Notes: a model not told the origin generated them from the letters alone. DNA of 64,000 bases from an uncultured Bacteroidota bacterium (GCA_963770945.1 CAVYRP010000010.1:33190-97189); one strand, 5' to 3'. Shown: positions 7,201-57,217, counted from the stretch's first letter. Numbers and translations are program-made.

Positions 7201-7475
7201 CTTACCCTGGATATCCCTTCTCGTGTACTTGACTGAACGTAGCTGACATCGTTTACAGAACTTACACTGCGCTCTATGAGCCGTGTAACCGACTGTTCCA
7301 TATCAAGCGGGCCTGCACCGGAGTAGTAAGTAACCGTTGTTACGACAGGAATAGAAATATTCGGCAGCAGATCAATGGGGAGCTGCTGGAATGACACGAA
7401 GCCCAATACAACTATTGTAAGAGCAAAAAGAAATGTTGAAATCGGATAGCGAAGCGCAAGCCGTGTCAGCCACAT
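4240..7475 (-). pseudogene. RND efflux transporter permease (AcrB/CzcA family), frame broken twice
   Basis: Three colinear ORFs (6930..7475, 5555..7084, 4240..5664) read as one about 1070-aa RND permease: MWLTRLALRYPISTFLFALTIVVLG.. / ..NGVAAAPVSGGRIREIHVTLDRNRLEAM.. / ..NIQVALVSPEERD.. Frame switches lie near 6985 and 5630. Confidence 0.85.
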
Positions 7476-7581
7476 AAAATATTCTCGATGTTACTTTTGT
7501 CTTTCGAATAAGACAATTGTGCAGTTTAAATTTGTTGTCTCGATATCTATATTACATACTTATTTTACTTAAATGACACTA

Positions 7582-8633
7582 TTATTGAATATTAACCTGT
7601 CCGCTGTCTTTCACAAATTGCTGGCCGACCGTTATAATAGTCTCATTTCCCGTTAATCCTGACAGATATTTCCGTTTTTTCAAGCAGCTCTATTCCGGTT
7701 TTTACACGGATACGTTTAGCTTTGCTTTCATCAAGAGTAAAAACATATTGTCCGGAATCGTCTTTTAGAATTGCGTTTGTCGGTACCGTTACTGCATCCT
7801 TGCGTTCTGCAATGGTCATTTGTACGGTTGCAAACATTCCAGGTTTGATTATATGATCTGAATTGTCAATTTCAATTTGAATGGCCATCGTTCTTGTTGT
7901 CAGATCCAGGGCATCGCTGTATCGTGTTACCTTCCCCTGGAATACTTTGCCGGGTAAAGCAGCCAATGTTACCTGCGCCGTGCGTACCTGATACATCGAT
8001 TGAACATTCGCTCTCGGGAACATTAACTATCACTTTGACCTGATCAAGATTCATCAATGTGAAGAGCGTGGCACTATTTGCCGTGACCAGCGCACCCGGA
8101 TCAAGAAATCGTTTCGTAATTATTCCGGAAAACGGCGCAACGATCCGGGCATAACTGAGTCGTGTTGCGGCAGCTTCGAAGTTTGCACGGGCAACTTTCA
8201 TCGTCGCATCTGCATTATCCAATTCCTGCTTTGATGATAAATTTTTTTCAATTAATAGTTGAACACGTTCATAAATAATTCGGGCATTCTGATATGTTGC
8301 ATTGGTCTGTTGATATTGCTGATATAATTCTGTCGAATCTATTGTCGCAAGCAGCTGCCCGGTATATACTTTTGATCCCATATCCGCATAGATACGTTCG
8401 AGATTTCCGGGAACTTTAGAAAATATTCCTGCCTGCCTGATTGCCAATACATCTCCATTAAATTGAAGTTGTGTCTTCACCAATTCTCGGACTGGTTTAT
8501 CCACTTTCACCAACGGTGTCATCTTTCTCCGTTCTTCTGCAGACTTGGATTCGCTGCTTATACGAAACGCAAAAAAAATACCGATAATAAGAATAATAAC
8601 TATGATTATACCGTAAAGCCAAACTTTCTTCAC
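7582..8633 (-). pseudogene. RND efflux periplasmic adaptor (membrane fusion protein), frame broken twice
   Basis: ORFs 7872..8633 and 7643..8023 are colinear MFP pieces. Hand translation of a third frame below 7670 gives the expected C-terminus ..EILSGLTGNETIITVGQQFVKDSGQVNIQ*, with the stop at 7582-7584. An extra T is apparent in GAAATA(T)CTGTCAGG near 7665, and a second shift lies near 8018. Confidence 0.8.
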
Positions 8634-8704
8634 ACTCTATTCCTTTTTCTTATCAATTCTCTTTATATCAATAATATAGCAAGTTTCCTTTAAACCGGCC
8701 ATAT

Positions 8705-11610: not shown

Positions 11611-11646
11611 AAATAAAAAAAGGCATCCGTTAGTAGCGAATGCCTT
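11611..11646 (-). terminator. Rho-independent terminator of the hdr/met/glt operon
   Basis: Stem AAGGCAT(11620-26)/ATGCCTT(11640-46). On the minus strand it is followed by TTTTTTTATTT. Lies 155 nt downstream of the metV stop. Confidence 0.7.
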
Positions 11647-11801
11647 CTAATGTAACTTGTCTAACAGATGAATTTCATGCAGATATAGAAAACTATAGAT
11701 CGACTTGCAGGAAAATTACAAGGACTTTTTTACCCGGCTTATTGTAAAGGATACAACAATAAGTGATTAACAATTTAATTTATACCGGTAAATTCTCCTT
11801 T

Positions 11802-12470
11802 TCATATCCTATGATCTTCACGAATTATAGTCCTGCTGCCGCCGCTTATGCTTGTGCTCCAATTTTTAACCGGATATTCTTTTGAGATTTTATCCAATTG
11901 GCCGATATCTTTTAATCGTTTATAAATTAACTGCCAAGCGCATGGCTGGTCAGCTCTAATTTCACATCTATCTTCTCGTGAGCCGCCGCAAGGACCATTT
12001 AGCATGTGTTTTGCACATCTCGTGATTGGACAAATACCGCCGAAATCGGACAATACACACGTTCCGCATTGCATACATTTTTCTGTCCATACTCCCCTTG
12101 ATTCAAGGATACCGAGGAAAGCTGTATCAAGGCCTGCATAAACCGGTGTACCCGGAAAACGCTCTGCTATAGCTTGTACACCTGCACCGCATCCCAGTGA
12201 AAGGACTGCATCGTTTTTCTTGATTTCTTCGGCAGCGCTTTCTATAAAAACATTGTCGCACTGACGCTCGATCGTAAATTCGTTGACTTTTATCTTCTTG
12301 CCGGCTTTTCTCGACGCAATCCGTAAAGCCGATGAAATTATGGAAACTTCCCTTTCGCCTCCGGCAAGGCACACTGTAACGCATGTACCGCATCCAAGGA
12401 CAAGAACATTTTTATGTTCTTTAACGGCATCGAATATTTCAGGTATTTTTTTTCTCTGTGCGACTATCAT
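11802..12470 (-). CDS. metV: MetV-like protein (methylene-THF reductase C-terminal domain, Cys-rich)
   Basis: 222 aa. Cys-rich signature CGTCVLSDFGGICPITRCAKHMLNGPCGGSREDRCEIRADQPCAW, as in the MTHFR_C/MetV partner of MetF in acetogens. Confidence 0.75.
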   Translation of the reverse strand: MIVAQRKKIPEIFDAVKEHKNVLVLGCGTCVTVCLAGGEREVSIISSALRIASRKAGKKIKVNEFTIERQCDNVFIESAAEEIKKNDAVLSLGCGAGVQAIAERFPGTPVYAGLDTAFLGILESRGVWTEKCMQCGTCVLSDFGGICPITRCAKHMLNGPCGGSREDRCEIRADQPCAWQLIYKRLKDIGQLDKISKEYPVKNWSTSISGGSRTIIREDHRI

Positions 12471-12494
12471 TGTAAATCCGCTTTATTAAATTAT

Positions 12495-12968
12495 TTATTC
12501 ATGTGAATTAAGCGTTTCAAATTCTTTATATTCTCCTCCCGAACCGTCGTTTGTTTTTCGTACCGGATTCGGACCTAATTCTTTAACAGTATTCACCATT
12601 TCATTTATTGCCGAAACTAAATTCGTTGCCATTGCGGCCGAATTGTTAATCATTCGCAGGCGTTCTTTTTCAATGCCGCTTTCCTCCAGAATGACCTGAA
12701 TTGAATTTACCCGTTTCTTTGCAAAGAGATTGCCGTCTATAAAGTGACATCCGCCCTCAAGGCATCCTGCCACTAAAACCCCGTCGGCGCCGTTTTCGAA
12801 TGCACGCATGTAGTATTCTGTTTCGAGTCGTCCGGTGCAGGGCGTACGGATGATTCGAACTCCTGATGGATACTGCAGCCGCATCGATCCGGCTAAATCT
12901 GCTGATGCATAAGCACAATAATGGCAGCAAAAAGCGATAATTTTCGGTTCAAATGTAGTCTCGTTCAT
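12495..12968 (-). CDS. mvhD: MvhD/FlpD-like hydrogenase iron-sulfur (delta) subunit
   Basis: 157 aa. IIAFCCHYCAY..RIIRTPCTGRLE..VLVAGCLEGGCHF is the classical MvhD pattern. Confidence 0.85.
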   Translation of the reverse strand: MNETTFEPKIIAFCCHYCAYASADLAGSMRLQYPSGVRIIRTPCTGRLETEYYMRAFENGADGVLVAGCLEGGCHFIDGNLFAKKRVNSIQVILEESGIEKERLRMINNSAAMATNLVSAINEMVNTVKELGPNPVRKTNDGSGGEYKEFETLNSHE

Positions 12969-12970
12969 TT

Positions 12971-15900
12971 TTATACAGCTTCTTCTATGTTTAATAATTT
13001 ATCTATCATAGATTTGAAATGGTCCGATTTGAAATGATTAAGCTGGATTGCATGAGCCGGGCATTCAGACGCGCATATTCCGCAACCCATACATTTTGCT
13101 TTTTCAATTTCTGCTTTGTGGTTGTCGTTACAATACGGTGCACCGAACGGACAGGCGTTTACACAGGTCATGCATGAGATACACTTATTTTGATTTACAA
13201 TCGAAACCTGTGCTCCTACTTCCAAATGAGTTTTTGAAAGAATCGTAGCCGCACGCGCAGCAGCAGCCTTTGCCTGAGTTATATTCTCATCCAACATTTT
13301 TGGCGAATGGGCCAATCCGCAAACAAACAAGCCTTCAGTAGCAAAGTCCACAGGCCTTAATTTCATATGGGCTTCTACATAAAATCCGTTTGCATTTAGC
13401 GGTACTTTGAGCATGTCCGAAATTATTTTATTTTCTTTTTCGGCCTTAATCCCGGTGCTCAAAATAAGATGATCAGCTTCTATGACGATACCATCCGGAA
13501 AATCGGGACTATCCAATTTAACCGAGCTTAATACGCCATTAACATCTGAAACAGCAGGCAAATTGTTTTCATCATATCTTATAAAGACAACTCCTGCTTC
13601 GCGTGCTTGTTTATAATAAACCTCCCTGAATCCGTACGTTCTGATATCTCTATATAATACATAAATATTGGCAGTCGGATCTTCTTCTTTAATTTTGAGT
13701 GCATTCTTGATTGCCATCGAACAACAAATTCTGCTGCAGTACGGATTCTCTGAATTACGCGAACCGACGCACTGTATCATCACGTAGGTTTGCCCTGTTT
13801 TTTCAATTCTCTTACGGTTCAGAAAACTCTCAAGTTCCGTTTGTGTCATTATATTCTTTACGGTTCCGTATGCGTATTCTTTCGTTTCGGCAGGCCTCGC
13901 ACCGGTTGCGATTATGACAGCACCGCAAGTAAATTCTTTCGGTTTGCCGTCTTTCGTAATACTAATTTTAAATTCACCGATATGTCCCGACACGTTTTGG
14001 ACAATTGAATTTAAATGATAATCTATATTTCTATGTGTACTGAATTTCTCAATCAGATCGGACTTGAATTTATCAAGGTTCTCGTTTTCAAGCGTGGAAT
14101 GGACTATCGTCGATATTTCCGCCTAATTGGGAAGATCTTTCTAATAGTTCGACATCGTATCCTTGTTCCGCCAACGAAAGCGCAGCAGACATTCCGCTTA
14201 CGCCTCCTCCGATGATGACGGCATTCTGATGAATTGGAATTTTTTCTCCTTCGAGAGGCGATAGGCCGTATGCCCTTGAAATCGACATTTTAACAAGTTC
14301 AATTGCTTTTTTCGTAGCATTTTCCGGTTCGGAGGAATGAACCCATGAACACTGATCTCTAATGTTTGCTAGTTCGAATAAATATGGATTTAATCCGGCT
14401 TCCCGCAATGTCTCGCGGAAAATAGGTTCGTGTGTCCTCGGGGTGCAGGAAGCGACTACAACTCTATTCAACCTGTTTTTTACTATTTGCTCTTTAATAT
14501 TGGATAGGCTTGCATCGGAGCAAGTATACATAGTATGAGAGCTAAATACAACCCCTGGCTGATTCTTAATCGAATCGGTTACCTTTTCCACATCGACAGT
14601 TCCGGCTATATTCATTCCGCAATGACAGACAAATACTCCTATCCTTGGTTTTTCATCGGTAACGTCGTGTTCATATGGATATTCTTTTGATACCACCAAC
14701 GTATCCTTGGCAGGCGACAACATTTCCATAGCCATAGCGGCAGCGGCACTTGCCTGCATAACTGTTTCAGGAATATCTTTAGGTTCCTGCAAAGCTCCTG
14801 CAACAAATATGCCCGGCTTGGATGTCATTAGCGGCGACAACCTGTCTGTTTTACAAAAGCCGTGTTCATTAATGACAATTCCAAGCTTGCGTGCACCTTC
14901 AGTCACGGATATTTTCGGGTCCATACCCACGGCCAATACTACAAGATCAAAATCTTTTTCCGTATAACCTTTTACAGGATCAAAATAGGCCAACCGCAAG
15001 TCGTTCGAGCCTGGCATTTGAATAATTCGTGAAGGTATGCTTTTAACATATTCAACATTTTTCATCGCACGGGCGCGTTCATAATATTGATCAAAATCTT
15101 TTCCATATGCCCTTATATCCATATTAAATATAGTACCCTGCAATCCAAGCGCATGTTCGGAAGCAATCATGACCTGTTTGGTAGTAGCCATACAGCATAT
15201 GGATGAACAGTATTCATTTCCAGGTTTCGATTCACGGGATCCAATACACTGTATCCATGCAATTCGTTTTGCTTCTTTGCCGTTATCCCTGCGTACGACA
15301 TGGCCAAAGGAAGGACCAGCAGCAGAAAGCATGCGTTCAAATTGGACGCTTGTGAGCACATTGGCATACCGCTTGAAGCCGTATTCGCCCTTTTGCTCCG
15401 CGTTATACTCATCAAAACCGGTTGAAAGAATGACCGCGCCAACTTCAAGATCCAGCTTTTGGTCATTCATTCCATGCTCGACCGCTTTCTTTTCGCACGC
15501 CGAAACACATTCCATGCATTCCGAGCATTGAGCACAATTCAAGCACCTTTCAGCTTCGGAAATTGCATTATTTTCTGAAAATGGAAATTCGATCTCATTA
15601 AAATTGTTTATGCGGTTTTCTACACTAAGTTCATCGGCAGAAGCACGATTCTTTTTTGCGATATTCTTTTCCGACGGCAGCAACTCCTCCGGAACAGGTT
15701 TTAGCGAATGTTCAAACCGATTAGGCAGCATATCTTCGTTGTTCAAATAGCGTGCTATAGATTCTGCTGCGCGCTTTCCTGCAGCAACTGCCTGTATCAC
15801 GCTCGCCGGACCGGAAACATTATCTCCACCGGCAAAAATTCCTTCCGCAGAAGTTTCAAGTGTAACAGGATTAACTTTAAAACATCCGCGTTCAATATCA

Positions 15901-17429
15901 ATGCCGATATGTTTCGTTAAGTCATTATCAAGCATCTGGCCTATTGCAACTATTATCTGATCAGCATCAATTTTAATTGTCTTATTTTCATCGTAGGAAG
16001 GTTTAAATTTTCCGTTTGGATCAAAAACGCTTGTACACTGTTTAAGTTCTATTCCTGCAACGGACCCGTTACCAAAGATTTGTTTTGGTCCCCATCCGTT
16101 TCGTATTACAATTCCTTCTGCAATTGTCGCTTCAATCTCTTCCTTATACGCGGGCATTTCATTACGCTGCTCAAGCGAAATCAGTTCAACTCTTTTAGCG
16201 CCGAACCTGAGAGCCGTTCTTGCCACGTCAATCGCAACATTGCCGCCCCCGATGACGATCACGTTTTCCTTAACTAGCGGCTTGTCTTTTTCATTCGGAG
16301 CCTGCCTGAGGAATTCAACACCATAATCTACGCCTGTTTTATCCTCACCGCTTATACCTAATTTTCTGCTGACATGCGCACCGGCACTGACAAAGACCGC
16401 ATCATTTTCTTTCTTCAATTCGGTAAAATCTTTGTTCTTACCGATAGTACAATTCAAAACAATTCGAACACCTTTGCGCTTTATCAGGTCTACTTCATAA
16501 TCAAGTATATCTTTTGGAAGCCTGTATCTTGGAATTCCGTAATAAAGCATTCCGCCCGCAGAATCTCTCGATTCGTAAATCGTAACAGCAAAACCTCTGC
16601 CGGCAAGATCGTCGGCAGCAGTTAATCCGGCAGGACCGCCGCCAACTATTGCAATTTTTTTTGCATCCGGGGAAGGATTTTTCTGCCCGGGCAATTTCAG
16701 AGTCCCGGATTTATAGAGTTTTATTTCCTGATCTGAAGCAAACCTTTTTAATTGCCTGATCGCAAGCGAACTGTCCACCCTAGAGCGAGTGCAGGCCGTC
16801 TCGCATGGAGCAGGACAAACACGGCCGCATATTGCGGCAAGCGGATTTCTTTCGCGTATGAGATTGACCGCTTTTAAATACTCTTTTTTCTTTATTAATT
16901 GAATATAGCCCTGAACATTAACATTAGCCGGACATTTCATCCTGCATGGAGCATGTCCGAGTTTTAATATGCTGGGTTTATTTGGAATTGCCTGCGCATA
17001 ATATTTTTGTATAGCTTTTCTTGTACCAAGATTGCGGTTAAATATATCGCTTAATTCCACCGGACATGCTTTTGTGCATTCTCCGCAATCGTTACAGATT
17101 TTTTCATTGATATAACGCGGTGATTTTTTAATTGTAACCTTAAAGTTGCCCGGCTCACCTTCAATTTTTTCCAGTTCGGAAAGAGTAAGAATTTCTATAT
17201 TTAGATTTCTGGCACATTCCACTAACTTCGGCGAAATAATACATGTTGCACAATCGCCCGTTGGAAAAGTTTTATCGAGATGAGACATCATACCGCCGAT
17301 GGCTGCAGAACGGTTTACCAGGTAGACTTTATAACCAGAATTCGCAAGATCAAGAGATGCCTGAACTCCTGCAATACCGCCGCCTTCGACCAAAACAGCA
17401 CCGATCATCTTTTTCTTTTCAATTTTCAC
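12971..17429 (-). pseudogene. hdrA: giant HdrA-like flavoprotein (HdrL type: HdrA + GltD/NfnB-like NAD(P)H module + second HdrA), frame broken once
   Basis: ORF 14088..17429 (1113 aa) contains:
- an FAD fold, VEGGGIAGVQASLDLA;
- the HdrA motif DKTFPTGDCATCI;
- an inserted GltD-like block (IAIVGGGPAGLTAADDL, VIGGGNVAIDVAR);
- an HdrA C-half;
- the start of a second HdrA (AVIIGGGVSGMSAAL).
ORF 12971..13993 continues that second HdrA and ends with 2x CxxCxxC. Hand translation bridges them (..LGGNIDD / IVHSTLENENLDKFKSDLIEKFSTHRNIDYHLNSIVQNVSGHIGEF), requiring one indel near 14105. Confidence 0.8.
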
Positions 17430-17446
17430 AAATTAACCTTCCTTCA

Positions 17447-18319
17447 TCAATAACTTTTTACGGCTTCAATAATCGGTTTCGGCGAAACTATGCATTTATC
17501 CATACCAAGCTTTTCCGGTGTAATACCTAAACACAGGCCTACAAGCTGGGTTATATATACAATCGGAATGTTATAGCTGGTTTTTTTTACTTTATTTATA
17601 TCGCTTTGCCTTAAATCCAAATTTACCTGGCACATAGGACAGGCGACTGCCATACATTCAGCACCGGATGCTTTAGCCATGCCTAATATGGAATTGGAAA
17701 GTTCGATAACAATATCTGTTCGTGTAAGAGCAAATCCGCCGCCGCAGCATTCAACTTTATGCGGCCAATCAATACTCTCGCCTCCCATAATTGTTACGAG
17801 GTCGTCCATAATCGTAGGATTTTCAGGATCATCAAAATTAGTCACTCCTCCCGGCCTTACCAGCAAACATCCGTAGTAATTGACAACCTTTAATCCTTCT
17901 AATGAATGCGTAAAAGATTCCTGCAGCTTTTTTATACCAATGTCTTTTAATAAGTAATTCTACAAAATGAATTACATTTACACTGCCGTCATAATCTTCT
18001 CCTAACGATTCGCTGACTTCTTTTCTGATATCGGGATGCATTTGGATTTCATAATTAGCGACTTTCATCCTATTATAACATGCCGCGCAGAATACAACCA
18101 TATCAAGTCCCATCTTCTTTGCCAATTAGAAGGTTTGCAGCAGGAAGAGCAAGAGAGAGAATTTTATCGGTGTGGTGCGCTGGTGTTGAACCGCAGCATG
18201 TCCAGCCCTTCGGTTCGATCAGTTCGATGTCCAAGAGCTCGTGCAACTTCACAAATCGACATGTATTGATCGATAGCTGTAGATTCTGCTGAACATCCGG
18301 GATAATATGCATATTTCAT
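17447..18319 (-). pseudogene. hdrB: heterodisulfide reductase subunit B-like (two CCG domains), frame broken three times
   Basis: Four overlapping ORF pieces rebuild MKYAYYPGCSAESTAIDQYMSICEVARALG/IELIEPKGWTCCGSTPAHH..NLLI/AKKMGLDMVVFCAACYN..ELLIK/DIGIKKLQESFTHSLEGLKVVNYYGCLLVRPGG..KVECCGGG..ACPMCQ. Apparent single-base insertions lie near 18237, 18122 and 17940. Confidence 0.85.
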
Positions 18320-18482
18320 TTTCAAATATTTCTTATATGTTGCTGCATTATGCAAATATTTAATTGGTGACAGTATTCACCCTGTTACATTTAAAATATG
18401 TAATCGAGAACTCGTTTTCTTTAAAAATATTCAGATCCTCTGCTGCTTCTATGATGCACCGTAAAGACTTTTGCTGCAGGAT

Positions 18483-19059
18483 TTATTCATTGCTTTGATA
18501 ATTACTCCGGCTTTTCCCGGTCTTAAATATTCTTTTTACATATTTTTTATCGGCTTTGAACGACGGTAATAATGCTATTTTTCTTTTTTGAAGCATCATC
18601 GGAAATTTATCAGTGTCCTGAAAATAGCTCGAAGTCCCAACTTTATATGCTGCAATCATTCCAAGGTCGTATGTCCTGCCAAATATGCTTACTGTTTTCA
18701 AAAACCATTTGTTAAACAGCGGAACATTGCCTTTCTGTTTAACGTGTATTTTTCCTGAGAGAAATAATTCGCAGTGCGTCCATGACTGCAGCCATATCAA
18801 TTTGCATCGGACAGCGTGAAAAACAAGTATCGCAGGAAGCGCACATCCATACGAGATCGCTGTTTATTATTGAATCGCCTTCATTGAATTGCAGTCTTCT
18901 GATGATTTCCGAAGGAGGCACTTTGACCAGTGTTGCAACCGGACAACCGTTGGTGCATTTTTTACATTGCAGACATCCGGCAACATCCACGCCGGATATT
19001 TCTTTAACTGCATTGTATATTCCTGTTTCCCTTTTATTTTTACTTATCACAAGATGCAT
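18483..19059 (-). pseudogene. hdrC: heterodisulfide reductase subunit C-like (2x4Fe-4S), frame broken once
   Basis: ORF 18739..19059 carries CLQCKKCTNGCP and CASCDTCFSRCP. ORF 18483..18800 continues it in another frame. The shift lies within 18739-18800. Confidence 0.8.
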
Positions 19060-19077
19060 ATATTATCCGAATAAATT

Positions 19078-21745
19078 TTATTCTAATATTTCTTCAGCAA
19101 GCTCATCAACTTCCTGCTCTTCGCCGTAAACATCTTTTTCCGGGGTAGACGGTGTACCTTCAATACTCGGCGAGACTTTACGATAGACCTTCTTAGGATC
19201 AAGTATTTTACCGTTCACAGTTAATAAATCATCTATTTTAATTCCAAAAAGCTTTTCATTCTCAGTGAGATACGGTAATATCAATTCCCAATCTTTTTCC
19301 GTAAAAGGAGAAAAGATGCACCCATTTAATTGCTCGCTAATTAACTTCCTTTTAGGATCCCTGATAAATGCGGCTCCTCCCGAAGCCAAAGAAAATAAAT
19401 TGCTTCCCGGGTAAGGCTCGGGAAGAGGTACAATTTGGCCTTCTTCATTAAACTTCATACCGTTTAGAATAACAAAGCCGCCTTTATTGTGCGGGTCACC
19501 CGCCATAAACGATTCACCGAGAAAATCAAGACTTGTACCATTAATAACAATTCTAGGCCTTCCGACTGAATTAATCATCGGACGTCCGGCAGCATTTCCC
19601 TTTACAAAGATAGAACCTCCTTTAGCGCCGTATAAGAAGGTCTGCCCTACATCTCCGTGTATCACTAATTTTCCATCCTTGATTATCTGGCCCAGCTGGT
19701 CCTGAGAATTGCCATGAACGGTCACTGACATTCCGTCGATTCCGGAACCGAGATAATCACCCGAGCTGCCGTAAACATCTATAGACACGTCATGCGTTTC
19801 AGGCCCGAAACCGCAGCCAACATAACGCTGACCTGCACATTGAAACAGGATAAAATTCTTCCAGCCTAATCTGTAAGCCCTGACAATAAGCATTGCGTCG
19901 CATTCATCGCCTTCCGGCGGAAATTTCTTTGAATCGACTACCAGTATTTTTTCTTTGCCTTTTGGCTCCCGAAGATCGTTTCTTGTTTCAAAATCAATTA
20001 AACGATATTCTAACGATTCATCTTTTTCAGAATGAAGTTTCGGAATACTTTTAAAAAGAGAATCGAGTTCTGTCCGTATTATATAGAGAATGTGTGAACG
20101 CCTTTTCGCGCCAGTCTTATAATTTCTATCATTCAACAACGTCAGTGCATTTATCGCATAAGATGTCTGTTCGCTGTTTTTACCGAAATTTCTAATCGCC
20201 TGGCAGGCTATACGAATATCATCGAAAGACCACTGCGGGATACTATCCCTGACAAAATCAAAAATATATTTTCCGGCAGATGCGTATTCGGTAATTATAT
20301 TTTCGATTGGTTCCTTATTTCTTGAATCAGGAATATCTTTTGTGAAATCACATCCTTCGGTTTTTTCAGTTATGGCAACCGGAATACCGAACTTATCTTT
20401 GCATTCGAGCCTATGTTTGCCTTTGTCATCTTTCACAATATCAAATATAAATGCACCGCCGTCCGAATAGCTCCCGCCGCGGGCATTCCAGTACTTATCG
20501 GCAACAGGGCAAATCCGTTTGTCATCTTTTGCAAGACTTGCAAGTGTAGCATCGATAGCTTGCTTTTCGGAGCCGATAATTCCGACCTGAACTTCCCCAT
20601 CAACAAATGCAAAGACCTGCGGTCTCAGCATTGCAGTATCGGTGATTCCAAGCAATTGGAATTTGCGGCTTTCTATAAGATTACGCGCTATGATGAAGAA
20701 CCATGGCCCATCCGGAGAACCGTGCATATGCGTCGCCTGAATTGCCCTGTAAATTTCCTGCTTTTCTTTGGGCAACCGGTCAAAGTCAAGTTCTGTTGTC
20801 GGAGCCAATGCCTCTATAATATATTCCACAGGATATTTGTAAATTCGAGACAATAAATCGAACATCAGCGCCGAAACTTCGGTATCGGTAATAAATTGGG
20901 GATAAATATTACGCTGCTTTAAATATTCCGTTACCGAGTGATAATTAGCAAAATCGCCGTTATGTACCAGCGCCATATTCATTGCAGTAAACGGATGAGC
21001 ACCTCCCGGATGCCAGACCCGGCCTCTTGTCGGATATCGTTGATGTGCAATCCAGACATGAGCACACAGGTCATTTATCTTATAATATTGCGTTACAGCT
21101 TCAGCATAACCGACGACTTTCAGAATCATAATGTTACGGCCCTGCGACATCACAAAAGCCCTCTGCTTTTTCGCCGAAACATAAAATTCATTGTTGAGTT
21201 TGAAGCTGTTTTGGTTTACAAACTCATCTTCGATATCTCGCCGGTCAAGGCCTGTAAAATTGTTTTCTGAAATGAATTTATTCAAAACGCTGTCTTTTAC
21301 ACGTACAAAATACCTGTATACATCCGGCGGTTTGACTTCAAGTCCGGGAACACTTTTCCAATCAATTGACCGTATCGAGTTTTGCAGATTTTTTTATATC
21401 GAACACAGGATTAACATATTTATTTTCAACATCGTGATGGACAGATGCATCAAGATATGCTATATGGAGCATGTAGCAATCGTCGAGAACCTCCCTTGAT
21501 ACACCTAATTGTTCAGGAATAAAACCGACCGCTGCTATTCCACCGCCTTTACCGTTGCCGCGATTATGCATCAATCTTGAAGGTTCATGGATATGCTTGC
21601 CGGGAACCGGCTCAGTACAGCAAAAACCTACAACTCCGCATCCTCCTTCAGCTTCCATAGACAATCGATTTATCCGGCATTTGAAGGACTTCATTGAGAT
21701 TTCTTTTCGATTGCAAGTATATTTATCTATATCCCTGCAATTCAT
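19078..21745 (-). pseudogene. glutamate synthase large-subunit modules fused: class-II glutamine amidotransferase (GltB1-like) + GXGXG domain (GltB3-like), frame broken once
   Basis: ORF 21362..21745 holds the Ntn nucleophile region (..GGCGVVGF.., HNRGNGKGGG). ORF 19078..21285 holds AHQRYPTRGRVWHPGGAHPF.., LVHNGDFANY and the C-terminal GXGXG repeats (GSSGDYLGSGIDG..HGNSQDQLG..HGDVGQTFLYGAKGG..VKGNAAGRP). The join ..KLDTVN/DWKSVPGLEVKPPDVY needs one base removed near 21362. The true start may be the internal Met at about 21658 (MEAEGGCG). Confidence 0.8.
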
Positions 21746-21755
21746 AGACTTACTG

Positions 21756-23333
21756 TTATCTTATTTCTGTTTGTTTTGAGATGTCCAGATGTATTAACAA
21801 GTCTGTTCTTCCTCGTAGTTCATTAATGCTCTTCAACCGAGACGTCTTAATATATCTTTTAATCCGATTGACCATGCATTGTAAAGATTAATGATCCGCT
21901 GTGTTCCCCACTCAATGTAACTTGGGAGGCAAGCTCCGGATTTGTTGTCGCAATACCTCTGGGGCACCCTTTTCCGCTTTCACATCTGCTGCATCTTAGA
22001 CAGCACAGCGCTACCAATTCTGCCGTTCCAACGACGACTCCGTCGGCGCCGAGGCAAATTGCTTTTGCAATATCATAATAATTGCGTATACCGCCGCTCG
22101 CTATTAATACAACTCCGTCGCGGACACCTTCGGTTGAAAGAAAATTATGAACTTTCGGGATGGCATAGTCTACAGGCATTGCAATATTCTTCTTAGCGAT
22201 ATCAGGAGCTGCTCCTGTGCCTCCATACCCGCCGTCTATATGTATGATGTGTGTGCCTGCATAATAACTTCCAACTGCAACCATATCGACGTCGGTTGGA
22301 GTTGAAACCTTTGTAGAAATAAGAGCCCTCGGATTTACATGTTTCATCCAATCGATGTGTTTCATATGATCTTCGATTGAATAGACGCTGTGAAATGGAA
22401 ACGGAGAGAACAATGGAATTCCCTGGACCGCTTCGCGCATTTTCGCTACTGCAGGAGTATTCTTGGTTCCCAGCAAATGGCCGCCTAACCCGGGTTTCGC
22501 GCCCTGCGCATATTTGAATTCTATGATTGGAACTCTTTGAATAGTCTCTTCTCTCACACCGAAAAGTCCAGTAGCTACCTGCGTAATCATATGATCGTCG
22601 TATGGTCTCAGGCGTTCCATGTAACCGCCCTCGCCGGAGCATGAAAAAGTATTCCATGCCGCGCAGCCGCTCGCACTTTTGATAACTGTGTGATATTGCT
22701 AATGGAACCAAACGACATCCCTCCACCGTACCAAGGAACGTCAATTTTTATCTTAGGCCTGCCGTCATTTCTTCTATTCAATTCAAGGCTCAGGTCAATT
22801 TCATCTGAGTCAACTACAGCTGGATTTTCCGGATACACAATTCTGATTCTATCGAATCCTCCGCCAGAGCTGCCTGTTTCATATTCAAAATCATAGTCCC
22901 CGGGAATTAGTTCTCCAGTTTCGGCCATCTTCCATGTTGCAAGAATCATGTCCGAAGTCCATCGATAATCCCCTAAAACTTCCATCATAGGATTTTTCAC
23001 CAATCTTAAGGCACTGTTCGGGCATTTTGCTACACAAAAATTTTCTGTTTTTGCGCAAACGAAACCATTGCATTTATAGCTTAGCGGAGCGGCAAATAAC
23101 TTATAACCTTCCTTTAATACGTGTACACCTTTTGCGCATGTCCTAACGCAAGTGCCGCACATTTTACATCTTTCTTCATCGCGATAGATAAGATATTTAG
23201 CGATCTCGTTGCGGTATCTCGAAGGAGCCGGTTTAATTTTTCTTTCTACTTCGACCTGCGGAACACGGGTCTTAAAAGTGTTCCGGGGGAGAATTTCTTC
23301 CAGATTTTTTTTATCTATTAAAGATCTGTCCAT
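21756..23333 (-). pseudogene. glutamate synthase FMN-binding module (GltB2-like) with N-terminal ferredoxin domain, frame broken about three times
   Basis: CKMCGTCVRTC / CVAKCP ferredoxin motifs. These are followed by VPWYGGGMSFGSIS, EFKYAQGAKPGLGGHL, IHIDGGYGGTGAAP and IASGGIRN. Frame switches lie near 22650, 21895 and 21810. The hand-read tail ..LEWGTQRIINLYNAWSIGLKDILRRLG(L)KSINELRGRTDLLIHLDISKQTEIR* stops at 21756-58. The start at MDRSLIDKK (23333) is my choice and overlaps the upstream stop. Confidence 0.75.
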
Positions 23334-24713
23334 AAATTTCTTCTTCAATTTCATCTTTAAATATGGCACGTCCAACATCGCCGCGCAGCCTCCTGGCTTC
23401 CCGCATACCCATCGCTCCCATAAGCTCGACCAATTGCCAGTGCCATGCACCGATTAAATTAGACATGCGCCCTACACCATAATGTAAATCGATTGCTGTA
23501 TCCAATTTTGAGGGACAATAATCGCCGGGTTTACAGCTCTCACAAAGGCGGCATTCGATAGCAATTAATAACGGCAGGTTAATTGAAACCAGATCAGCGC
23601 CGCAAATAATCGCTTTAGCAACGTGTTCCGCTAACCCGATTCCACCACCTGCGATCAAAGTAATCTCATCTCTCTTTTCATTTTTTATTAAACCTGCATG
23701 TACTTCACGGATAATATCCTTCATGAACCGTGGATTTTGAACGCCAATTTCATTTCCGTTGAGGTCGGCGATCAGATGGATGACTTCGACATCAAATTTC
23801 GACAATTCATCTGCACGCCTTACTACTTTTTCATCCATTAATGTCCTTACAGCAATAATTATTCCCGGATGATCTTTCTTTATCGATTTGATTTGCTGCT
23901 CGACATTATCATGGTCCGGAATTTCCACCAATCGTGTTCTATCAAGGATTTCTTTTGGTATCCGGGGTTCATTCGGATTTAATAAGAAGGCAATATTGTT
24001 TAAGATATTCCTCTTTATTATTGAGTTTTATCGATTTCCATTTCTTCCAGTCTATAACGGCAATGAGTCCTGTTTGTTTTGCTGTCTCAATAATGCAAGG
24101 TTCAAGAACAGGAAGCGTATGCTTTTCGGAAGACATATCAAATATTACGGGGAAAGGAATAGAAATAAACGAAGGAAGGTTTGTCTCCAGTTTATAGTTT
24201 TGAAAATTAAGAAAGGAGGGTTTCTTGCCGATATCAACGGATGTACTGATATACTCTCTTCCATGAATACCATCGCGTGTAGGCCGGACAATTTCAGACA
24301 TATCGGTCCACATGGAATCAAATCCAGGAGCCTGAAAATTTGCCCCTATAACCTGCGCCGGAGACCGGGACTTTTCCAGTTTCCGCTTCCAGCCATGTTG
24401 TGCTTAAAATTTGCGGCTTCCAATATTCGTTGCCTAGTTTTTGATATTCCGAATTCAATGCCAGCGTCAATAAATTTTTAGTGCAATTCTGGACGCATGA
24501 AAAACATCCCATGCATTCGTAATAGAGCGTATGAATTTCGTCAAGATTTCTAATGAAAGTAATTTCTTCGCGATGCTTATCATAGACACAAGCTTTTTTT
24601 ACGCAGTTATGGCATCCTGCGCAATCTTCGCGCCAGTCTACAATTCCGCACTTTCCTATCCGGGGAAGTCTCGGCTGAACATGACTCGTTTTAATATGAT
24701 ATTTTTCAGGCAT
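23311..24713 (-). pseudogene. second, divergent glutamate-synthase-like FMN-domain protein with N-terminal 2x[4Fe-4S]-like Cys clusters, frame broken twice
   Basis: Pieces 24318..24713 (CAGCHNCVKKAC, CMGCFSCVQNC, ..VSGAGYRGKFSG), 23969..24313 (MWTDMSEIVRPTRDGIHGREYISTSV) and 23311..23931 (IAGGGIGLAEHVAKAIICGADLVSI, CRLCESCKPGDYCP) are colinear. Confidence 0.6.
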
Positions 24714-24723
24714 AATGAACTGC

Positions 24724-25616
24724 TTATAGTCCGGCTTGAGAAATAATCTCGTTTATTATATCTTCTTTTCCGCCTGAAATGATATGAATACCGCTTAATC
24801 CCTTCATTTCCTTAATTTTATTTATCGTTTCAACACAGATCGCAATGCCTCTTTTCTTTTGTTCAGCAAGGTTTCCGGCATCCTTCATACTGTTTATATG
24901 CGATTCCGGTATGTAAAAATCAGTATGTTTTTTCAAGAGACTTATTGCTTCGTTATAACTTTCAAGGGGATAGATTCCTGCTATGAATGCAGCCTTCTCT
25001 GTTAATCCTTCCTGATATGCTGCATGTAACCATTCATGAAAATCGGTTGTATTGAAAACGCCCTGTGTCTGAATGAATTTTGCTCCGGCTTTAATTTTTT
25101 TTGTTAATCGCATGATATTAAGGTCAAGAGGACGCAGATAAGGATTTGCGACCGCGCCTACGAGCACAGAAAAATTTCCGCTGATTTTTGCATTGTTCAG
25201 GAGGATTCTTTCGTTATTCATCGTTGTGACAAGTGTTTATCAGTTGAATGGAGTCGATATCATAAACATTTGCCGATTCAGGCATTTCCGTAATGCTTTG
25301 ATGATATCCGGAAAGACACAGGATATTCTTGATACCAAGCGACACGGCGCCTAATATATCGGATTGAAGAGCTATCCTGTTACGATCGCGTGTAACAATT
25401 TGGTATACCGGTTCTATACCGGCTTGTTTTAATTTTACCGCCGATGCCAATCCGGAAATTATAGGGCCGTACGGATTGTCTGCTACATTCACTGCTATAA
25501 CACCTGATATTTGAGATTTATTTATGGGATCGGACTCAACATTTGTATCCGGCAAGATATTCGGCGGTAATAATGAAATCCCCTTCTTCTATTTTTTTTG
25601 CTAATAAACTGTCCAT
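24724..25616 (-). pseudogene. metF: methylenetetrahydrofolate reductase (MetF), frame broken twice
   Basis: The hand-read start MDSLLAKKIEEGDFIITAEY (ATG 25614-16) joins ORF 25214..25555 (..VADNPYG.., IVTRDRNRIALQSD, ILCLSGY). That joins ORF 24724..25221 (GAVANPY.., GAKFIQTQGVFN). Shifts lie near 25555 and 25218. Confidence 0.85.
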
Positions 25617-25625
25617 TTGTTTCTC

Positions 25626-26036
25626 TTATGATAATTCGAAAGCTTTTTCGTATTGGCTTATAATTTGCCGGATACATATTATTAATTCATTTATTGTATA
25701 TTCTGCCTTGTTTTTATTATCGAGATGAATAAACCAGATGCATTCGCCGCCTGCACCTGTTTCTATTAGAAGATTATTAACAGCTTCTATCCGTTTTTGA
25801 GCGCGAAGATTGCCTTGAAGAAACTTACATTCTCCAGTCATACAGCCTGTAACTATCGCGATGTCCGAACCTATCTCGATAGATTTTAGAATATATTCAA
25901 TTCCTATTTTCCCGGAACATGGCACACTTATGACATTTAATTCAACTCCATCAAGTTGAGAATTGAGGCGGTTTATTCCTTCCGGGGATATTGAATTCAA
26001 ACAATGGAAGAGTGATATTTTAATTGATGGATTCAT
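25626..26036 (-). CDS. mvhD: MvhD/FlpD-like iron-sulfur protein (second copy), first gene of the operon
   Basis: 136 aa. ..VISVPCSGKIGIEYILKSIEIGSDIAIVTGCMTGECKFLQGNLRAQKR pattern. Followed 10 nt later by metF. Confidence 0.8.
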   Translation of the reverse strand: MNPSIKISLFHCLNSISPEGINRLNSQLDGVELNVISVPCSGKIGIEYILKSIEIGSDIAIVTGCMTGECKFLQGNLRAQKRIEAVNNLLIETGAGGECIWFIHLDNKNKAEYTINELIICIRQIISQYEKAFELS

Positions 26037-26761
26037 TATTTTATCAAGAAATAAATATTATTTTTTTCAGATTGAAATGGATACTCTATTCGTTATTTCT
26101 CTAAAGCTTTCCAATCTTCTCTTTTATTTTTCCCGAGGCACTCTCATAACTCAAAAAGCTTTGCTCACACCATTCTATACCCGGTGTGTTGATAAGGTCA
26201 CTCATTACTTAACAAATTGGGATCACCAATTAGGACGTTTATTGAAAGAGATTTGACGCATGGTTGGTTTTCCGCGTATCATTCTCTCACAACGATCAAT
26301 GAAGTTTTACTTATCTCTCGCTTGTTTTGCCGCCAAATAGACCGCCTTATATCATTGAAGATCTTTATGCCCGCCGTCTTGACAAACTATATATAATGTA
26401 ATTTTATAATTATTCGAGATATAATCAAGTATTATTATAACATAATATTAATATATAAGGTATAATGATAACAATTCTTCACTTTATAACGAAATAGATT
26501 CTCCAAATAGAATTCGGATAGTATTTAAGAACAGCCGAAGTAATAACTGATAACGTCTCTTCCAACATCGGCTATTTAACTGCCTTACTCCTTGTGTTTC
26601 AATGCGTATTCGATTATATTTTTAACAAGTGCTTTTCGTATTAGAAATGAATTTGATTTACTAAATCTATAATGGTTGGATATATTCCTATCGAATATAC
26701 CTGCCTCCGTCCTTTTTCATATTACGTGGATCAGGAATTTCATGGCAAATGATATAATACT

Positions 26762-33963: not shown

Positions 33964-34876
33964 TTATAATCTATCTTTCAATTGACTGGTTAAAAAAGAT
34001 CTATTAATAAATTCCAGCCAAAGTGGAATTAATGACTGAATTTTTTCCAGGCTATTCTGCATTGTTTTTTCATTGATAGCTAGGGATATTGCATATTCCT
34101 TGAAATCATTTGATGTCAAATTTCGTCTTTTTCCCATTTATAGTTAATGCGGTTTCATCCATATCTTCCGGCATTACAAGCTTCGTAGCAACAAGGTCGT
34201 ATGCCGGTGTAAGTACTATTGAACCATCAAGTTCACGGATCAAAGAATAATTCTTTAAATGCATATCAGCATTCCCCGTAAGGAAGGAAAATAATGTTAC
34301 CTCAAATAATGCTAATGCATCGAGTCCTGAATTATCTGAATATTTCCTGACTACCTTGCCAATTTGCTCCATAGAACCCTTGTATTTATCCTCAGTCAGG
34401 CGTTCTGTCAATTGACACATATCTTCCATAGCAAGTTTTTTGTTTTCCTTGCGATCGATTCGCTTAGTTATGTATGCAAGTTCACCAGATTTAAGTCTTA
34501 TAAGGCTATGAGAAACCGTTTTAATTTTAGCAATTTCCGCAAGATGCATGGTCAGATCTTCTATTTCAGGCAGTTCCAGATACTGATCCGATGGTGGTTT
34601 TAAAACATAGCTGCCCCATAGACTAACTATAGTAAAACGCGTATCTTTTTTTGTTTTCTTATATGTTTCTATGTCCATTGATAATTTGGCTTGTACACCT
34701 GTAACCGTCGCGCTGCTTCGTATTACCTCATTTGCCAGTTCATACATCTGATCAAGCGAATAGGGTAATAAAGGCGCTTCTGTTGTACCAAACAATCTCT
34801 TACTACAACGGGCATGAAAATCGATCTGGTCCGTATCGAGCGGTTTATAACAAGCCAGGCATTTGTTGTTTGTCAC
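33964..34876 (-). pseudogene. hipT: HipT/HipA-family Ser/Thr kinase toxin lacking the HipA N-subdomain, C-terminal frame break
   Basis: VTGVQAKLS (P-loop-like), LTGNADMHLKNYSL (catalytic), and an N-terminal CxxC..H..C knuckle. After ..LTINGKKTK the frame breaks (TTT where TT is expected, near 34112). The other frame gives LTSNDFKEYAISLAINEKTMQNSLEKIQSLIPLWLEFINRSFLTSQLKDRL*, with the stop at 33964-66. Confidence 0.8.
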
Positions 34877-34879: not shown

Positions 34880-35212
34880 TTAGCTCCCTTTTTCTGTACC
34901 ATCAATTACACTTACTGCTCCTATACAATCCTTACAACAAGAGAGCAGCAAACCCATGCGATCTCTTCGATCTAGTTTCCAGTTTTTCTGTGCAATATCA
35001 AGCAGCCATCCTTCCGGGATTAGTCCGTCAAAAAACGGCAGCATCGTTTTACTTGTGAATACTTCTTTTCTCAGCGGTAATCTCAGACTTATTGGTTGAG
35101 CATCTTGATGCTGCAAATACGACTCATCATACTTGAATGAATATCCTGCTTCATCCTCTACAAGCGATCCTGCATAATGATCGGCATAGTATACTTTTGC
35201 CTTTCTACTCAT
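34880..35212 (-). CDS. hipS: HipS-like protein (stand-alone HipA N-terminal subdomain)
   Basis: 110 aa. ..LPFFDGLIPEGW.. motif of the HipA N-terminal domain. Its own stop (TAA) lies 3 nt before the kinase GTG start. Overlaps hipB by 8 nt. Confidence 0.75.
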   Translation of the reverse strand: MSRKAKVYYADHYAGSLVEDEAGYSFKYDESYLQHQDAQPISLRLPLRKEVFTSKTMLPFFDGLIPEGWLLDIAQKNWKLDRRDRMGLLLSCCKDCIGAVSVIDGTEKGS

Positions 35213-35423
35213 CTCCTTTTTCCTTCTTGTGTTTTACCGGCGCCAATACATGTCCAAAAAGCGCGAGAACTTGATTTACTTTATCCATCCGAAGATTTTT
35301 TTTACCCTGTTCCAAATCTCGTAAGAATCTCAATCCTACTCCGGCTTTCTTGGCGAGCTCATCTTGAGTAAGATTCAAAGATTTTCGACGATTTTTTACA
35401 AACTCGATTAGTAATTGATTCAT
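35205..35423 (-). CDS. hipB: HipB-like XRE-family HTH transcriptional regulator
   Basis: 72 aa. HTH LNLTQDELAKKAGVGLRFLRDLEQGK. Confidence 0.85.
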   Translation of the reverse strand: MNQLLIEFVKNRRKSLNLTQDELAKKAGVGLRFLRDLEQGKKNLRMDKVNQVLALFGHVLAPVKHKKEKGDE

Positions 35424-35451
35424 AAGAATTCCTATGATATTCTAATATCAA

Positions 35452-57206: not shown

Positions 57207-57217
57207 GTGCTATTCCT

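Follow-up and report, generated by a model that had tools for sequence, protein, structure and literature searches.

A ten-gene operon, conserved in gene order across at least six bacterial phyla, joins the genes of a predicted split glutamate synthase to those of a heterodisulfide-reductase-type (Hdr), probably electron-bifurcating, module and of a MetF/MetV module. No description of this cluster was found in full-text literature searches, although these did not cover most subscription journals. The cluster is best understood as encoding a glutamate synthase for ammonium assimilation that draws electrons from an Hdr-type NAD(P)H/ferredoxin module shared with MetFV, with the formation of one complex and electron bifurcation being inferred from gene content and sequence alone.

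Organization of the gene cluster

The cluster occupies positions 26036-11802 on the minus strand of a 64,000-nucleotide stretch of DNA from an uncultured Bacteroidota bacterium (GCA_963770945.1 CAVYRP010000010.1:33190-97189), hereafter the window. In the order of transcription, its parts are as follows (indels are given relative to the closest relative, see below).

26037-26761 (no strand assigned), AT-rich divergent intergenic region of ~720 nt between the operon and nadE, where the presumed promoter lies
25626-26036 (minus), divergent MvhD-like protein (D1, 136 aa), intact
24724-25616 (minus), metF (296 aa when frame-corrected), with 1-nt insertions at ~25550 and ~25234
23311-24713 (minus), G466, a degenerate paralog of the GltB2 synthase subunit, with 1-nt insertions at ~24326 and ~24005
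21761-23333 (minus; start of the range approximate, ~21761), G523, the GltB2-like catalytic subunit (ferredoxin domain plus FMN/synthase domain), with indels of +2 at 22664, -1 at 21913, -1 at 21835, +1 at 21773 and -1 at 21762
19078-21745 (minus), GATGX, a fusion of GltB1 (class-II Ntn amidotransferase with a ~34-aa propeptide) and GltB3 (GXGXG beta-helix), 887 aa when intact, with a 1-nt insertion at ~21368
18483-19059 (minus), hdrC (2x[4Fe-4S]), with a 1-nt insertion at ~18745
17447-18319 (minus), hdrB (two CCG domains), with 1-nt insertions at ~18229, ~18125 and ~17944
12971-17429 (minus), giant double HdrA of the 'HdrL' type (1487 aa) with an NfnB/GltD-like NAD(P)H-FAD-2x[4Fe-4S] insert at residues ~150-632, and one frame break at ~14110
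12495-12968 (minus), canonical mvhD (D2, 157 aa), intact
11802-12470 (minus), metV (222 aa), intact
11618-11648 (minus), intrinsic terminator closing the operon

All ten gene identities proposed in the original prediction were reproduced by Pfam searches, both on the reading-frame fragments of the window and on the intact orthologs of a related locus (L001). The first MvhD-like protein matches PF02662 FlpD (E 5e-17), retains four conserved Cys and is 77% identical to its L001 ortholog in a single frame, whereas D2 matches the same family with E 4e-47 and NCBIfam VhuD with 155 bits. PF02219 was detected on two fragments of metF, and metV is 96% identical to its L001 ortholog, which in turn matches PF12225 (E 8e-36). 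G523 matches PF01645 (E 2e-74 in the window, 288 bits in L001), GATGX carries PF13522 (GATase_6) together with PF01493 (58-64 bits against a cutoff of 32.5), HdrC carries Fer4_17/Fer4_8, and HdrB carries PF02754, in two stretches in L001. G466 has an N-terminal 2x[4Fe-4S] ferredoxin domain, the C-terminal part of Glu_synthase and a C-terminal Cys cluster.

The genes are tightly packed, with gaps of 2-24 nt or overlaps (G466 and G523 overlap by 23 nt, and hdrA and mvhD by 4 nt in L001). The original prediction of gaps of 0-25 nt throughout, however, does not hold for the hdrC-hdrB junction, which measures about 163 nt in the window and 68 nt in L001, and which in another related locus (L004) accommodates an inserted PDDEXK_3 gene. 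The predicted single terminator was confirmed as a 12-bp stem (5 GC pairs) with a 7-nt loop followed by a T-run; other terminator-like hits inside the operon are weak and fewer than expected from shuffled sequences (9 found against 13.5), and neither a strong internal terminator nor an obvious internal promoter block was found. No promoter was identified in the intergenic region facing nadE, nor was a sigma-54 element found there.

The frame breaks most likely do not reflect gene decay

The deposited sequence contains about 14 net frameshifts in seven of the ten genes, and one deposited gene call (P0002, 690 aa) carries the break. Could the cluster be a decaying, non-functional pseudogene cluster in this particular genome? 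The density of the breaks between 17.4 and 25.6 kb (about 1.5 per kb) is more than ten times that of the 26-59 kb region of the same window, which a uniform error model does not predict. Nevertheless, decay is very unlikely. Compared with L086, a 93%-identical contig with the same synteny, including the divergent nadE, and with all genes intact, most of the breaks are insertions, mostly of a single base, at non-homopolymer sites, i.e. opposite to the deletion bias of bacterial pseudogenes. There are no nonsense codons and no larger deletions in about 2,700 corrected codons, and the frame-corrected dN/dS of 0.04-0.16 against this closest relative equals or beats that of the neighboring nadE (0.128). 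Breaks of the same +1 type also split an AcrB-family gene into three and an HlyD-family gene into two, and alter the 3' end of nadE. The frame breaks thus look like sequencing or consensus insertions, and the native operon is most likely intact.

Conservation of gene order and genomic context

The GATGX protein has 7834 homologs, and one intact member (P0242) is 97% identical to the window protein; its relatives occur in at least 592 candidate stretches of GTDB species genomes. Of the 80 best species loci, 37 show the identical ten-gene order, in Planctomycetota (9), Verrucomicrobiota (9), Desulfobacterota (7), Bacteroidota (5), Chloroflexota (4) and Leptospiraceae (1), seven more are circularly permuted with all ten genes retained, as found in Desulfobacterales, and about 20 more are contig-truncated but consistent. 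The G466-G523-GATGX core appears in every variant, whereas the partner modules change, being Hdr plus MetFV, MvhD plus MetVF only, or a GlcD-like FAD/Fe-S dehydrogenase.

Importantly, amt, P-II, glnA and sigma-54 activator genes sit directly beside the cluster in 12 or more relatives covering all architectures, with amt-glnK-glnA directly upstream on the same strand in several lineages, and sigma-54-like -24/-12 elements occur upstream in some. In the window itself, by contrast, the neighbors are nadE and mnmA.

The glutamate synthase core

In GATGX, the residues expected of a class-II amidotransferase, assigned by presumed analogy to PurF/GlmS, namely the nucleophilic Cys (GGCGVVGF, Cys35), the Arg of RYPTRG, the oxyanion residues of HNGDFANY and the Asp of TDTE, are invariant or nearly so in sets of 11 and 74 orthologs. 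Residues 205-515 of G523 align to residues 857-1170 of GltS alpha (E 2e-50), and KYAQGAKPGLGGHLL...KMR, GGTGAAP, SGG and C-x2-C-x2-C-x5-CP are invariant in 58 orthologs. If the numbering of Synechocystis Fd-GltS is assigned correctly to the aligned motif, the equivalents of the 2-oxoglutarate-site residues Gln969, Lys972 and Arg992 are among these invariant positions, as are the FMN motifs, whereas the equivalents of Glu975 and Gln978 are Leu and His. G466, in turn, is 24% identical to G523 over its full length (E 1e-20) but lacks the KxAQGAKPG and GGTGAAP motifs, i.e. it has lost the synthase and FMN motifs. The alternative offered in the original prediction, that the GltB-like modules serve as electron-transfer scaffolds, holds only for this paralog.

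It is conceivable, though very unlikely, that the trio is not a glutamate synthase but another amidotransferase-reductase (acting, for example, on a gamma-glutamyl amide or a different 2-oxo acid, like N-methylglutamate synthase MgsABC), or a purely electron-transferring scaffold for the Hdr/Met module. In favor of this view, no protein reaches any NCBIfam equivalog cutoff, G523 differs from GltS alpha at two positions next to the active-site Lys (PGLGGH instead of PGEGGQ), its four-Cys motif, probably a 4Fe-4S site, replaces the 3Fe-4S motif C-x5-C-x4-C of GltS alpha, and G466 is clearly non-catalytic. The conserved glutaminase and 2-oxoglutarate-site residues and the amt-glnK-glnA context speak against it, and no recurrent flanking families beyond those of nitrogen assimilation were seen among the 80 loci, although gmaS and mgd were not searched for specifically.

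The Hdr and MetFV modules

The giant HdrA comprises two HdrA-like FAD modules; it matches PDB HdrA with E 8e-168 in four stretches, NCBIfam HdrA2 with 955 bits in four stretches and PRK12771 at residues 133-664. All NCBIfam hits of the Hdr subunits stay below cutoff (HdrA2 955 of 1100, HdrB (TIGR03288) 202 of 345, HdrC 61 of 160), and CoM-S-S-CoB is unlikely to be the substrate in bacteria. The 480-residue insert, containing Pyr_redox_2 and Fer4_20, lies between HdrA-equivalent residues 292 and 299. It aligns end to end with the FAD plus 2x[4Fe-4S] NAD(P)H modules of NfnAB/Stn transhydrogenases and GltD (PDB 9n5u, 8oh5, 4ylf, 5jca, 2vdc chain G), being closer to NfnA/Stn-type proteins (E 1e-99, for NfnA 9n5u, to 8e-85) than to true GltD (E 2e-46 to 5e-41). 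HdrB keeps both CCG Cys motifs, which suggests an unidentified thiol/disulfide or other substrate.

Somewhat unexpectedly, MetF has lost its canonical catalytic Asp. Profile alignment to human MTHFR and a motif survey showed that the Glu (TAE) corresponding to Glu28 is invariant, but that the Asp of the LRGD motif (presumably E. coli Asp120) is replaced by Tyr in the window (CLSGYHQS) and in 34 of 54 cluster MetFs, by Phe in 5 and by His in 5, while it is Asp in at least 105 of 150 representative MetFs of the wider family. The assumed methylene-THF reductase role of this protein is therefore doubtful.

A model for electron flow

The explanation that we consider somewhat more likely than not is that the operon encodes a large soluble iron-sulfur flavoprotein assembly, about 4,650 residues per protomer, whose core is a split ('archaeal-type') glutamine:2-oxoglutarate amidotransferase. 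In this model, the GltB1-GltB3 fusion hydrolyzes glutamine at an N-terminal Cys exposed after propeptide removal, ammonia passes to G523, where 2-iminoglutarate is reduced, and G466, catalytically dead but retaining its Fe-S sites, acts as an electron-transfer and scaffold partner. Electrons would come not from a plain GltD or free ferredoxin but from the HdrL(A)-HdrB-HdrC-MvhD module, whose NfnB/GltD-like insert binds NAD(P)H and whose HdrA flavins are of the electron-bifurcating type. The very exergonic reduction of 2-iminoglutarate (and possibly of methylene-THF at MetFV) by NAD(P)H would thus be coupled to ferredoxin reduction, saving energy in strict anaerobes, with the GOGAT step of ammonium assimilation as the physiological role. 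A single complex, bifurcation, the identities of donor and acceptor, and the role of MetFV are all inferred, in the absence of biochemical, expression or structural evidence; AlphaFold models were too poor to use. Moreover, both proposed acceptors lie above NAD(P)H in redox potential, so bifurcation is thermodynamically optional rather than required, and the model does not explain the conserved CCG motifs of HdrB.

Might the operon instead encode separate enzymes, a Moorella-type MetFV-HdrABC-MvhD methylene-THF reductase and an independent ferredoxin-dependent split glutamate synthase, co-transcribed merely for co-regulation? Both halves resemble known stand-alone systems, G523 and G466 carry ferredoxin-like domains of their own that could accept electrons from free ferredoxin, and no robust gene fusion links the Glt, Hdr and Met modules. 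In Desulfobacterales, the order hdrC-hdrB-hdrA-mvhD-metV-(mvhD-like)-metF matches what is probably the order in Moorella (Mock et al. 2014). However, the glt genes lie between metF and metV in 37 loci across six phyla, the circular permutation keeps all ten genes together, and MetVF stays attached to the Glt trio even where Hdr is absent (L062, L065, L067, L069-L071 and L077). In addition, the only NAD(P)H site is the GltD/NfnB-like one inside HdrA, the second MvhD-like gene has no role in a stand-alone model, and the distance matrices of the subunits co-vary (rho 0.83-0.95). We therefore regard separate enzymes as unlikely.

Less probable still is that MetFV serves as an electron donor rather than a second sink. 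Methyl-THF (about -200 mV), or NAD(P)H at an altered MetF flavin site, would be oxidized and the Hdr flavin would split the electrons between the high-potential GOGAT reaction and NAD(P)+ bound at the NfnB-like insert, resulting in a methyl-THF-driven glutamate synthase that also regenerates NAD(P)H. This idea finds some support in the interchangeable partners of the Glt core, one of them a substrate-oxidizing GlcD-like dehydrogenase, and in the Hdr-less form, where MetVF plus MvhD is the only partner and no NAD(P)H domain is present. The NfnB-like domain is also inserted where HdrA carries its inserted ferredoxin domain, i.e. in the low-potential branch, and, on textbook redox values, the mean of the NAD+ and GOGAT couples would be close to the methylene/methyl-THF couple. 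On the other hand, such a scheme would tie a catabolic C1 flux stoichiometrically to glutamate synthesis, no methyltransferase or corrinoid genes recur next to the cluster, the Asp to Tyr/Phe/His change should impair folate chemistry in either direction, and many carrier lineages do not seem to be known users of the Wood-Ljungdahl pathway.

A more far-reaching possibility, which we consider unlikely but not excluded, is a roughly 0.5-MDa Hdr-GOGAT-MetFV supercomplex, present in hundreds of anaerobic species across at least six phyla, that would use the large free-energy drop of glutamate synthesis to make reduced ferredoxin from NAD(P)H and would represent the first flavin-based electron-bifurcating enzyme of nitrogen assimilation. 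By linking MetFV-Hdr to a defined partner reaction, it would also identify the long-sought coupling partner of the Moorella-type module, and the Asp-to-Tyr MetF may have been re-purposed as an electron-entry flavoprotein.

Relationship to known systems

The MetFV-HdrABC-MvhD methylene-tetrahydrofolate reductase of Moorella thermoacetica (Mock et al. 2014, as summarized in PMC6085437 and PMC5736913), which is soluble, NADH-linked and proposed to bifurcate to a still unknown second acceptor, shares six gene families with the cluster (metF, metV, mvhD, hdrA, hdrB and hdrC). In the cluster, however, three glutamate synthase genes and a second mvhD-like gene are interleaved, HdrA is a double module with an NfnB-like insert, MetF lacks the canonical Asp, and many carrier lineages are seemingly not acetogens. 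With the split 'archaeal-type' glutamate synthase (separate GltB1, GltB2 and GltB3 proteins) and the FMN domain of bacterial GltS alpha (PDB 1ea0, 2vdc, 1ofd) the cluster shares the domain set, but GltB1 and GltB3 are fused, a catalytically dead GltB2 paralog is always present, and the proposed reductant module is Hdr/MvhD/MetFV rather than GltD, F420 (FrhB) or free ferredoxin. In contrast to bacterial NADPH-glutamate synthase (GltBD), with its single ~150-kDa GltB and separate GltD, GltB is split into three or four proteins and the only GltD-like sequence is an internal domain of HdrA.

Finally, a large HdrA that carries a glutamate-synthase-small-subunit/NfnB-like NAD(P)H-binding domain and is followed by mvhD is known from HdrL of Desulfobacterium autotrophicum (PMC2702500) and from the HdrA-NfnB fusions HdrA9-11 of ANME-1 (PMC9012536). 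Those proteins are described next to dsr, fdh or other hdr genes, not with glt or metFV genes. Interestingly, the insertion site in ANME-1 HdrA is likewise within the inserted ferredoxin domain.

Organization of the gene cluster

The minus strand between positions 26036 and 11802 carries ten co-directional genes, whose identities were established by Pfam scans both of the stop-free fragments of the window and of the intact orthologs found in a relative (locus L001). In order, together with the short names used here, they and their associated elements are:

D1, minus strand: FlpD (MvhD-like)
F, minus strand: MTHFR (MetF)
G466, minus strand: Fer4 + Glu_synthase
G523, minus strand: Fer4 + Glu_synthase
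GATGX, minus strand: GATase_6 + GXGXG fusion
C, minus strand: Fer4_17 (HdrC)
18320-18482: hdrC-hdrB gap
B, minus strand: 2 x CCG (HdrB)
A, minus strand: HdrA of 1487 aa
D2, minus strand: FlpD (MvhD)
V, minus strand: PF12225 (MetV)
11618-11648: strong intrinsic terminator (12-bp stem and T-run)

Terminator-like hits inside the operon are weak and fewer than in shuffled sequences. The genes are separated by gaps of 2-24 nt or overlap, with the sole exception of the hdrC-hdrB junction, where the gap is about 163 nt; the original prediction, which had described one tightly packed minus-strand operon with intergenic gaps of 0-25 nt, is therefore correct apart from that one gap. Interestingly, this junction is a variable spot, measuring only 68 nt in L001 and, in a 6.2-Mb Bacteroidota contig (locus L004), holding an inserted gene of the PDDEXK_3 nuclease family (L004 13320-13697), whereas RNA folding of the gap in the window revealed no structure beyond that of shuffles (z = -0.9). 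Upstream of the operon lies an AT-rich region of ~720 nt shared with a divergent nadE. No sigma-54 promoter match was found upstream of the operon, and matches across the window are at chance level.

Frame breaks in the deposited sequence

A tblastn comparison with intact orthologs shows about 14 net frame shifts in seven of the ten genes. Does this copy of the cluster represent a decaying locus, or a faulty consensus? A contig from a JGI metagenome (L086) that is 93% identical in DNA has the same nadE-divergent synteny and has every gene intact. Against L086, most breaks in the window are single-base insertions, the exceptions being one +2 and three -1 events, and the insertions lie at sites that are not homopolymers. 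After frame correction there are no stop codons in about 2,700 codons, and dN/dS is 0.04-0.16 per gene, compared with 0.128 for the neighboring nadE; the same holds against the more distant L001, with locus L007 as an intact control. Breaks of the same +1 type also occur in other genes of the window, at 4243-7490, 7646-8636, ~28296 and 59830-62356, where an AcrB-family RND pump is split into three frames (Pfam model 2-169 / 161-602 / 605-1020), an HlyD-type fusion protein is split in two, the 3' end of nadE is altered, and a T9SS-tailed peptidase is probably split in two. No breaks were seen between 26 and 59 kb, so that consensus quality varies strongly along the contig. Given that a spectrum dominated by insertions runs against the deletion bias of real bacterial pseudogenes, we conclude, as far as can be judged without read mapping, that these are consensus errors of the assembly clustered in 4-26 kb of the window, and regard true decay of this copy as very unlikely.

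Conservation and modular variants

The GATase-GXGXG fusion has more than 7,800 database homologs; the best of them are nearly all about 887 aa, and those that carry a name are annotated as Bacteroidota or Bacteroidia MAGs. A scan of one genome per GTDB species found relatives in at least 592 candidate stretches, and the ten L001 proteins were mapped onto the 80 best loci. Of these, 37 have the identical order D1-F-G466-G523-GATGX-C-B-A-D2-V, comprising Planctomycetota (9), Verrucomicrobiota (9), Desulfobacterota (7), Bacteroidota (5), Chloroflexota (4), Leptospiraceae (1) and unclassified (2). Seven Desulfobacterales loci have the circular permutation GATGX-C-B-A-D2-V-D1-F-G466, which restores the order hdrCBA-mvhD-metV-metF, apparently that of Moorella, and about 20 loci are cut by contig ends but are consistent with these orders. 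By contrast, 8 loci lack Hdr but keep MvhD-G466-G523-GATGX-MetV-MetF, and 3 have only G466-G523-GATGX. In the latter, which belong to Desulfobacterota/Chloroflexota genomes (L076 5083-6930, L080 5703-7046, L084 5180-7084), the trio is preceded by a 616-aa GlcD-like protein with FAD_binding_4, FAD-oxidase_C and Fer4 (2x[4Fe-4S]) domains instead of Hdr/MetFV, suggesting a 2-hydroxyacid-dehydrogenase-driven form of the same glutamate synthase.

The constant element is therefore the trio G466-G523-GATGX, to which MetVF is attached in three different architectures, and pairwise distance matrices of the subunits correlate at rho 0.83-0.95. These variants (Hdr + MetFV, MetFV alone and a GlcD-like dehydrogenase) form a natural experiment in how reductant modules are swapped onto one catalytic core. 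Gene fusions between modules, on the other hand, were found only as an overlap in locus L046 and as a doubtful read-through in one Phycisphaerae MAG (L037 12598-12665), where the GATase-GXGXG gene continues into hdrC without a stop; as that MAG also has frame shifts in hdrA, this may be an artefact rather than a true fusion. Downstream of metV, Syntrophia-type loci (L047 20016-22630, L050 20165-22644, L055 20088-22609) carry an unannotated 375-aa protein followed by a second ferredoxin + Glu_synthase (GltB2-like) gene that is only 26-28% identical to G523.

The glutamate synthase module

G523 aligns over residues 205-515 with the FMN/synthase domain of GltS alpha (857-1170, E 2e-50). Under a provisional assignment of the Synechocystis Fd-GltS residue numbers to the aligned AQGAKPGxGG motif, the equivalents of Gln969, Lys972 and Arg992 and the FMN motifs are invariant in 58 orthologs, whereas the equivalents of Glu975 and Gln978 are Leu and His, and the 3Fe-4S motif is replaced by C-x2-C-x2-C-x5-CP. 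The fusion protein has a conserved Cys in GGCGVVGF behind a leader of ~34 residues, as well as RYPTRG, HNGDFANY and TDTE, the hallmarks of an active Ntn amidotransferase. G466 alone finds no GltS chain by phmmer, but pairwise alignment shows it to be a full-length paralog of G523 (24% identity, E 1e-20) that has lost the KxAQGAKPG and GGTGAAP motifs while keeping its eight-Cys ferredoxin domain and the C-terminal Cys cluster; we read it as a non-catalytic Fe-S scaffold. AlphaFold2 models of the GATase-GXGXG fusion and of G466 had a mean pLDDT of only 57 and 50, respectively, because the alignments were shallow, and were not used.

Importantly, the genomic context in relatives is decisive for physiology. 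Genes for amt, P-II and glnA, often with a sigma-54 activator, lie directly beside the cluster in 12 or more loci, which represent the canonical, permuted, Hdr-less and trio-only forms. In addition, conserved sigma-54-like -24/-12 elements, for example TGGCAAACAAATGGCA and TGGCACGACTTTGGCA, occur upstream of the first cluster gene in some Verrucomicrobiota and Syntrophia relatives, at about -187 to -206 in loci L012, L016, L019, L027 and L030, about -158 in L013 and L021, -228 in L041 and -199 in L051, the last two of which also carry a sigma-54 activator gene nearby. This argues that the trio is the GOGAT of the GS-GOGAT pathway. That it might instead be a different amidotransferase-reductase, or a scaffold, seems very unlikely.

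The Hdr and Met modules

HdrA maps onto solved HdrA structures in four pieces, with residues 12-150 corresponding to HdrA 154-292, residues 633-841 to HdrA 299-507, residues 923-1080 to HdrA 7-164, and residues 1343-1480 to HdrA 518-654. It therefore contains two FAD modules, whereas the segment at 150-632 is an NfnB/GltD-like NAD(P)H module that is closer to NfnA/Stn proteins (E 1e-99) than to GltD (E 5e-41). This is the 'HdrL' type named in Desulfobacterium autotrophicum (PMC2702500), and it also resembles the HdrA-NfnB fusions of ANME-1 (PMC9012536). HdrB keeps both CCG motifs and HdrC keeps two clusters, although none of the ten proteins reaches an NCBIfam equivalog cutoff.

MetV has PF12225 but no relative in the PDB, and MetF belongs to the RDRN-type MetF group. 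Somewhat unexpectedly, however, a profile alignment to human MTHFR places Tyr at the Asp of the LRGD motif (window ~25300, motif CLSGYHQS; L001 MetF residue 104). In 54 cluster orthologs this position is Tyr in 34, Phe in 5, His in 5 and Asp in 10, with Asp occurring only in the Hdr-less variants and in three divergent full clusters. Among 150 representative MetFs of the wider family, at least 105 have Asp and only the 9 closest have Tyr. Since this Asp (E. coli Asp120) is probably important for the folate half-reaction, the MetF of the main clade may not be a standard methylene-THF reductase.

A possible coupling of glutamate synthesis to electron bifurcation

How might these modules work together? 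We consider it somewhat more likely than not that they form one wired complex in which the Hdr module supplies the split GOGAT, and which would probably couple the exergonic reduction of 2-iminoglutarate, and possibly of methylene-THF, by NAD(P)H to ferredoxin reduction. The parts, their conservation and co-inheritance, the nitrogen context and the catalytic motifs are documented by the analyses described here, but physical association, bifurcation and its direction are inferred; bifurcation is not thermodynamically required, and the proposal explains neither the substrate of HdrB nor the Asp change in MetF. The absence of robust inter-module fusions is a further weak point. It is conceivable, though less likely, that separate enzymes are merely co-transcribed, and a role of MetFV as an electron donor, with bifurcation towards NAD(P)+ and GOGAT, appears more doubtful still.

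Glutamate synthase is the main entry of ammonium into biomass, and its NADPH-dependent reaction releases, by our estimate from textbook values, about 50 kJ/mol. If energy-starved anaerobes recover part of this energy as reduced ferredoxin through an Hdr module, electron bifurcation would extend from catabolism into central nitrogen anabolism. The cluster also offers a defined, testable partner for the Moorella MetFV-HdrABC-MvhD complex, the second substrate of which has been unknown since 2014, and makes it possible to ask how GltD-less anaerobes reduce GOGAT. Each module on its own is known, namely the Moorella complex, split GOGAT and HdrL; what appears to be new is their union in a widespread and strikingly conserved cluster, of which we found no published description, although most subscription journals lay outside the literature searched. 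A Smithella cluster designated 437_38:51 proved to be an ordinary Hdr/Flox cluster. Current annotation gives these genes unrelated generic names such as 'ferredoxin', 'glutamate synthase-related protein' and 'hypothetical protein', and metabolic reconstructions therefore miss the link.

Other features of the window

A HipA_C kinase-domain ORF of only 256 aa at 34109-34876, followed by short same-strand ORFs at 34883-35441, may be a fragmented hipBA toxin-antitoxin locus or another casualty of the frame breaks. A P-type cation ATPase (35913-38435) lies in a 2-kb stretch of 55% G+C, against about 42% for the rest of the window, and may be horizontally acquired. A single ORF of 1116 aa (42191-45538) fuses GH18 (chitinase-like), polysaccharide deacetylase and family-2 glycosyltransferase (chitin-synthase-like) domains. 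Finally, a PyrR-binding leader scoring just at Rfam's gathering threshold (54.1 against 54) is found at 58707-58808, upstream of a pyr gene block (55926-58689) and next to tRNA-Val.
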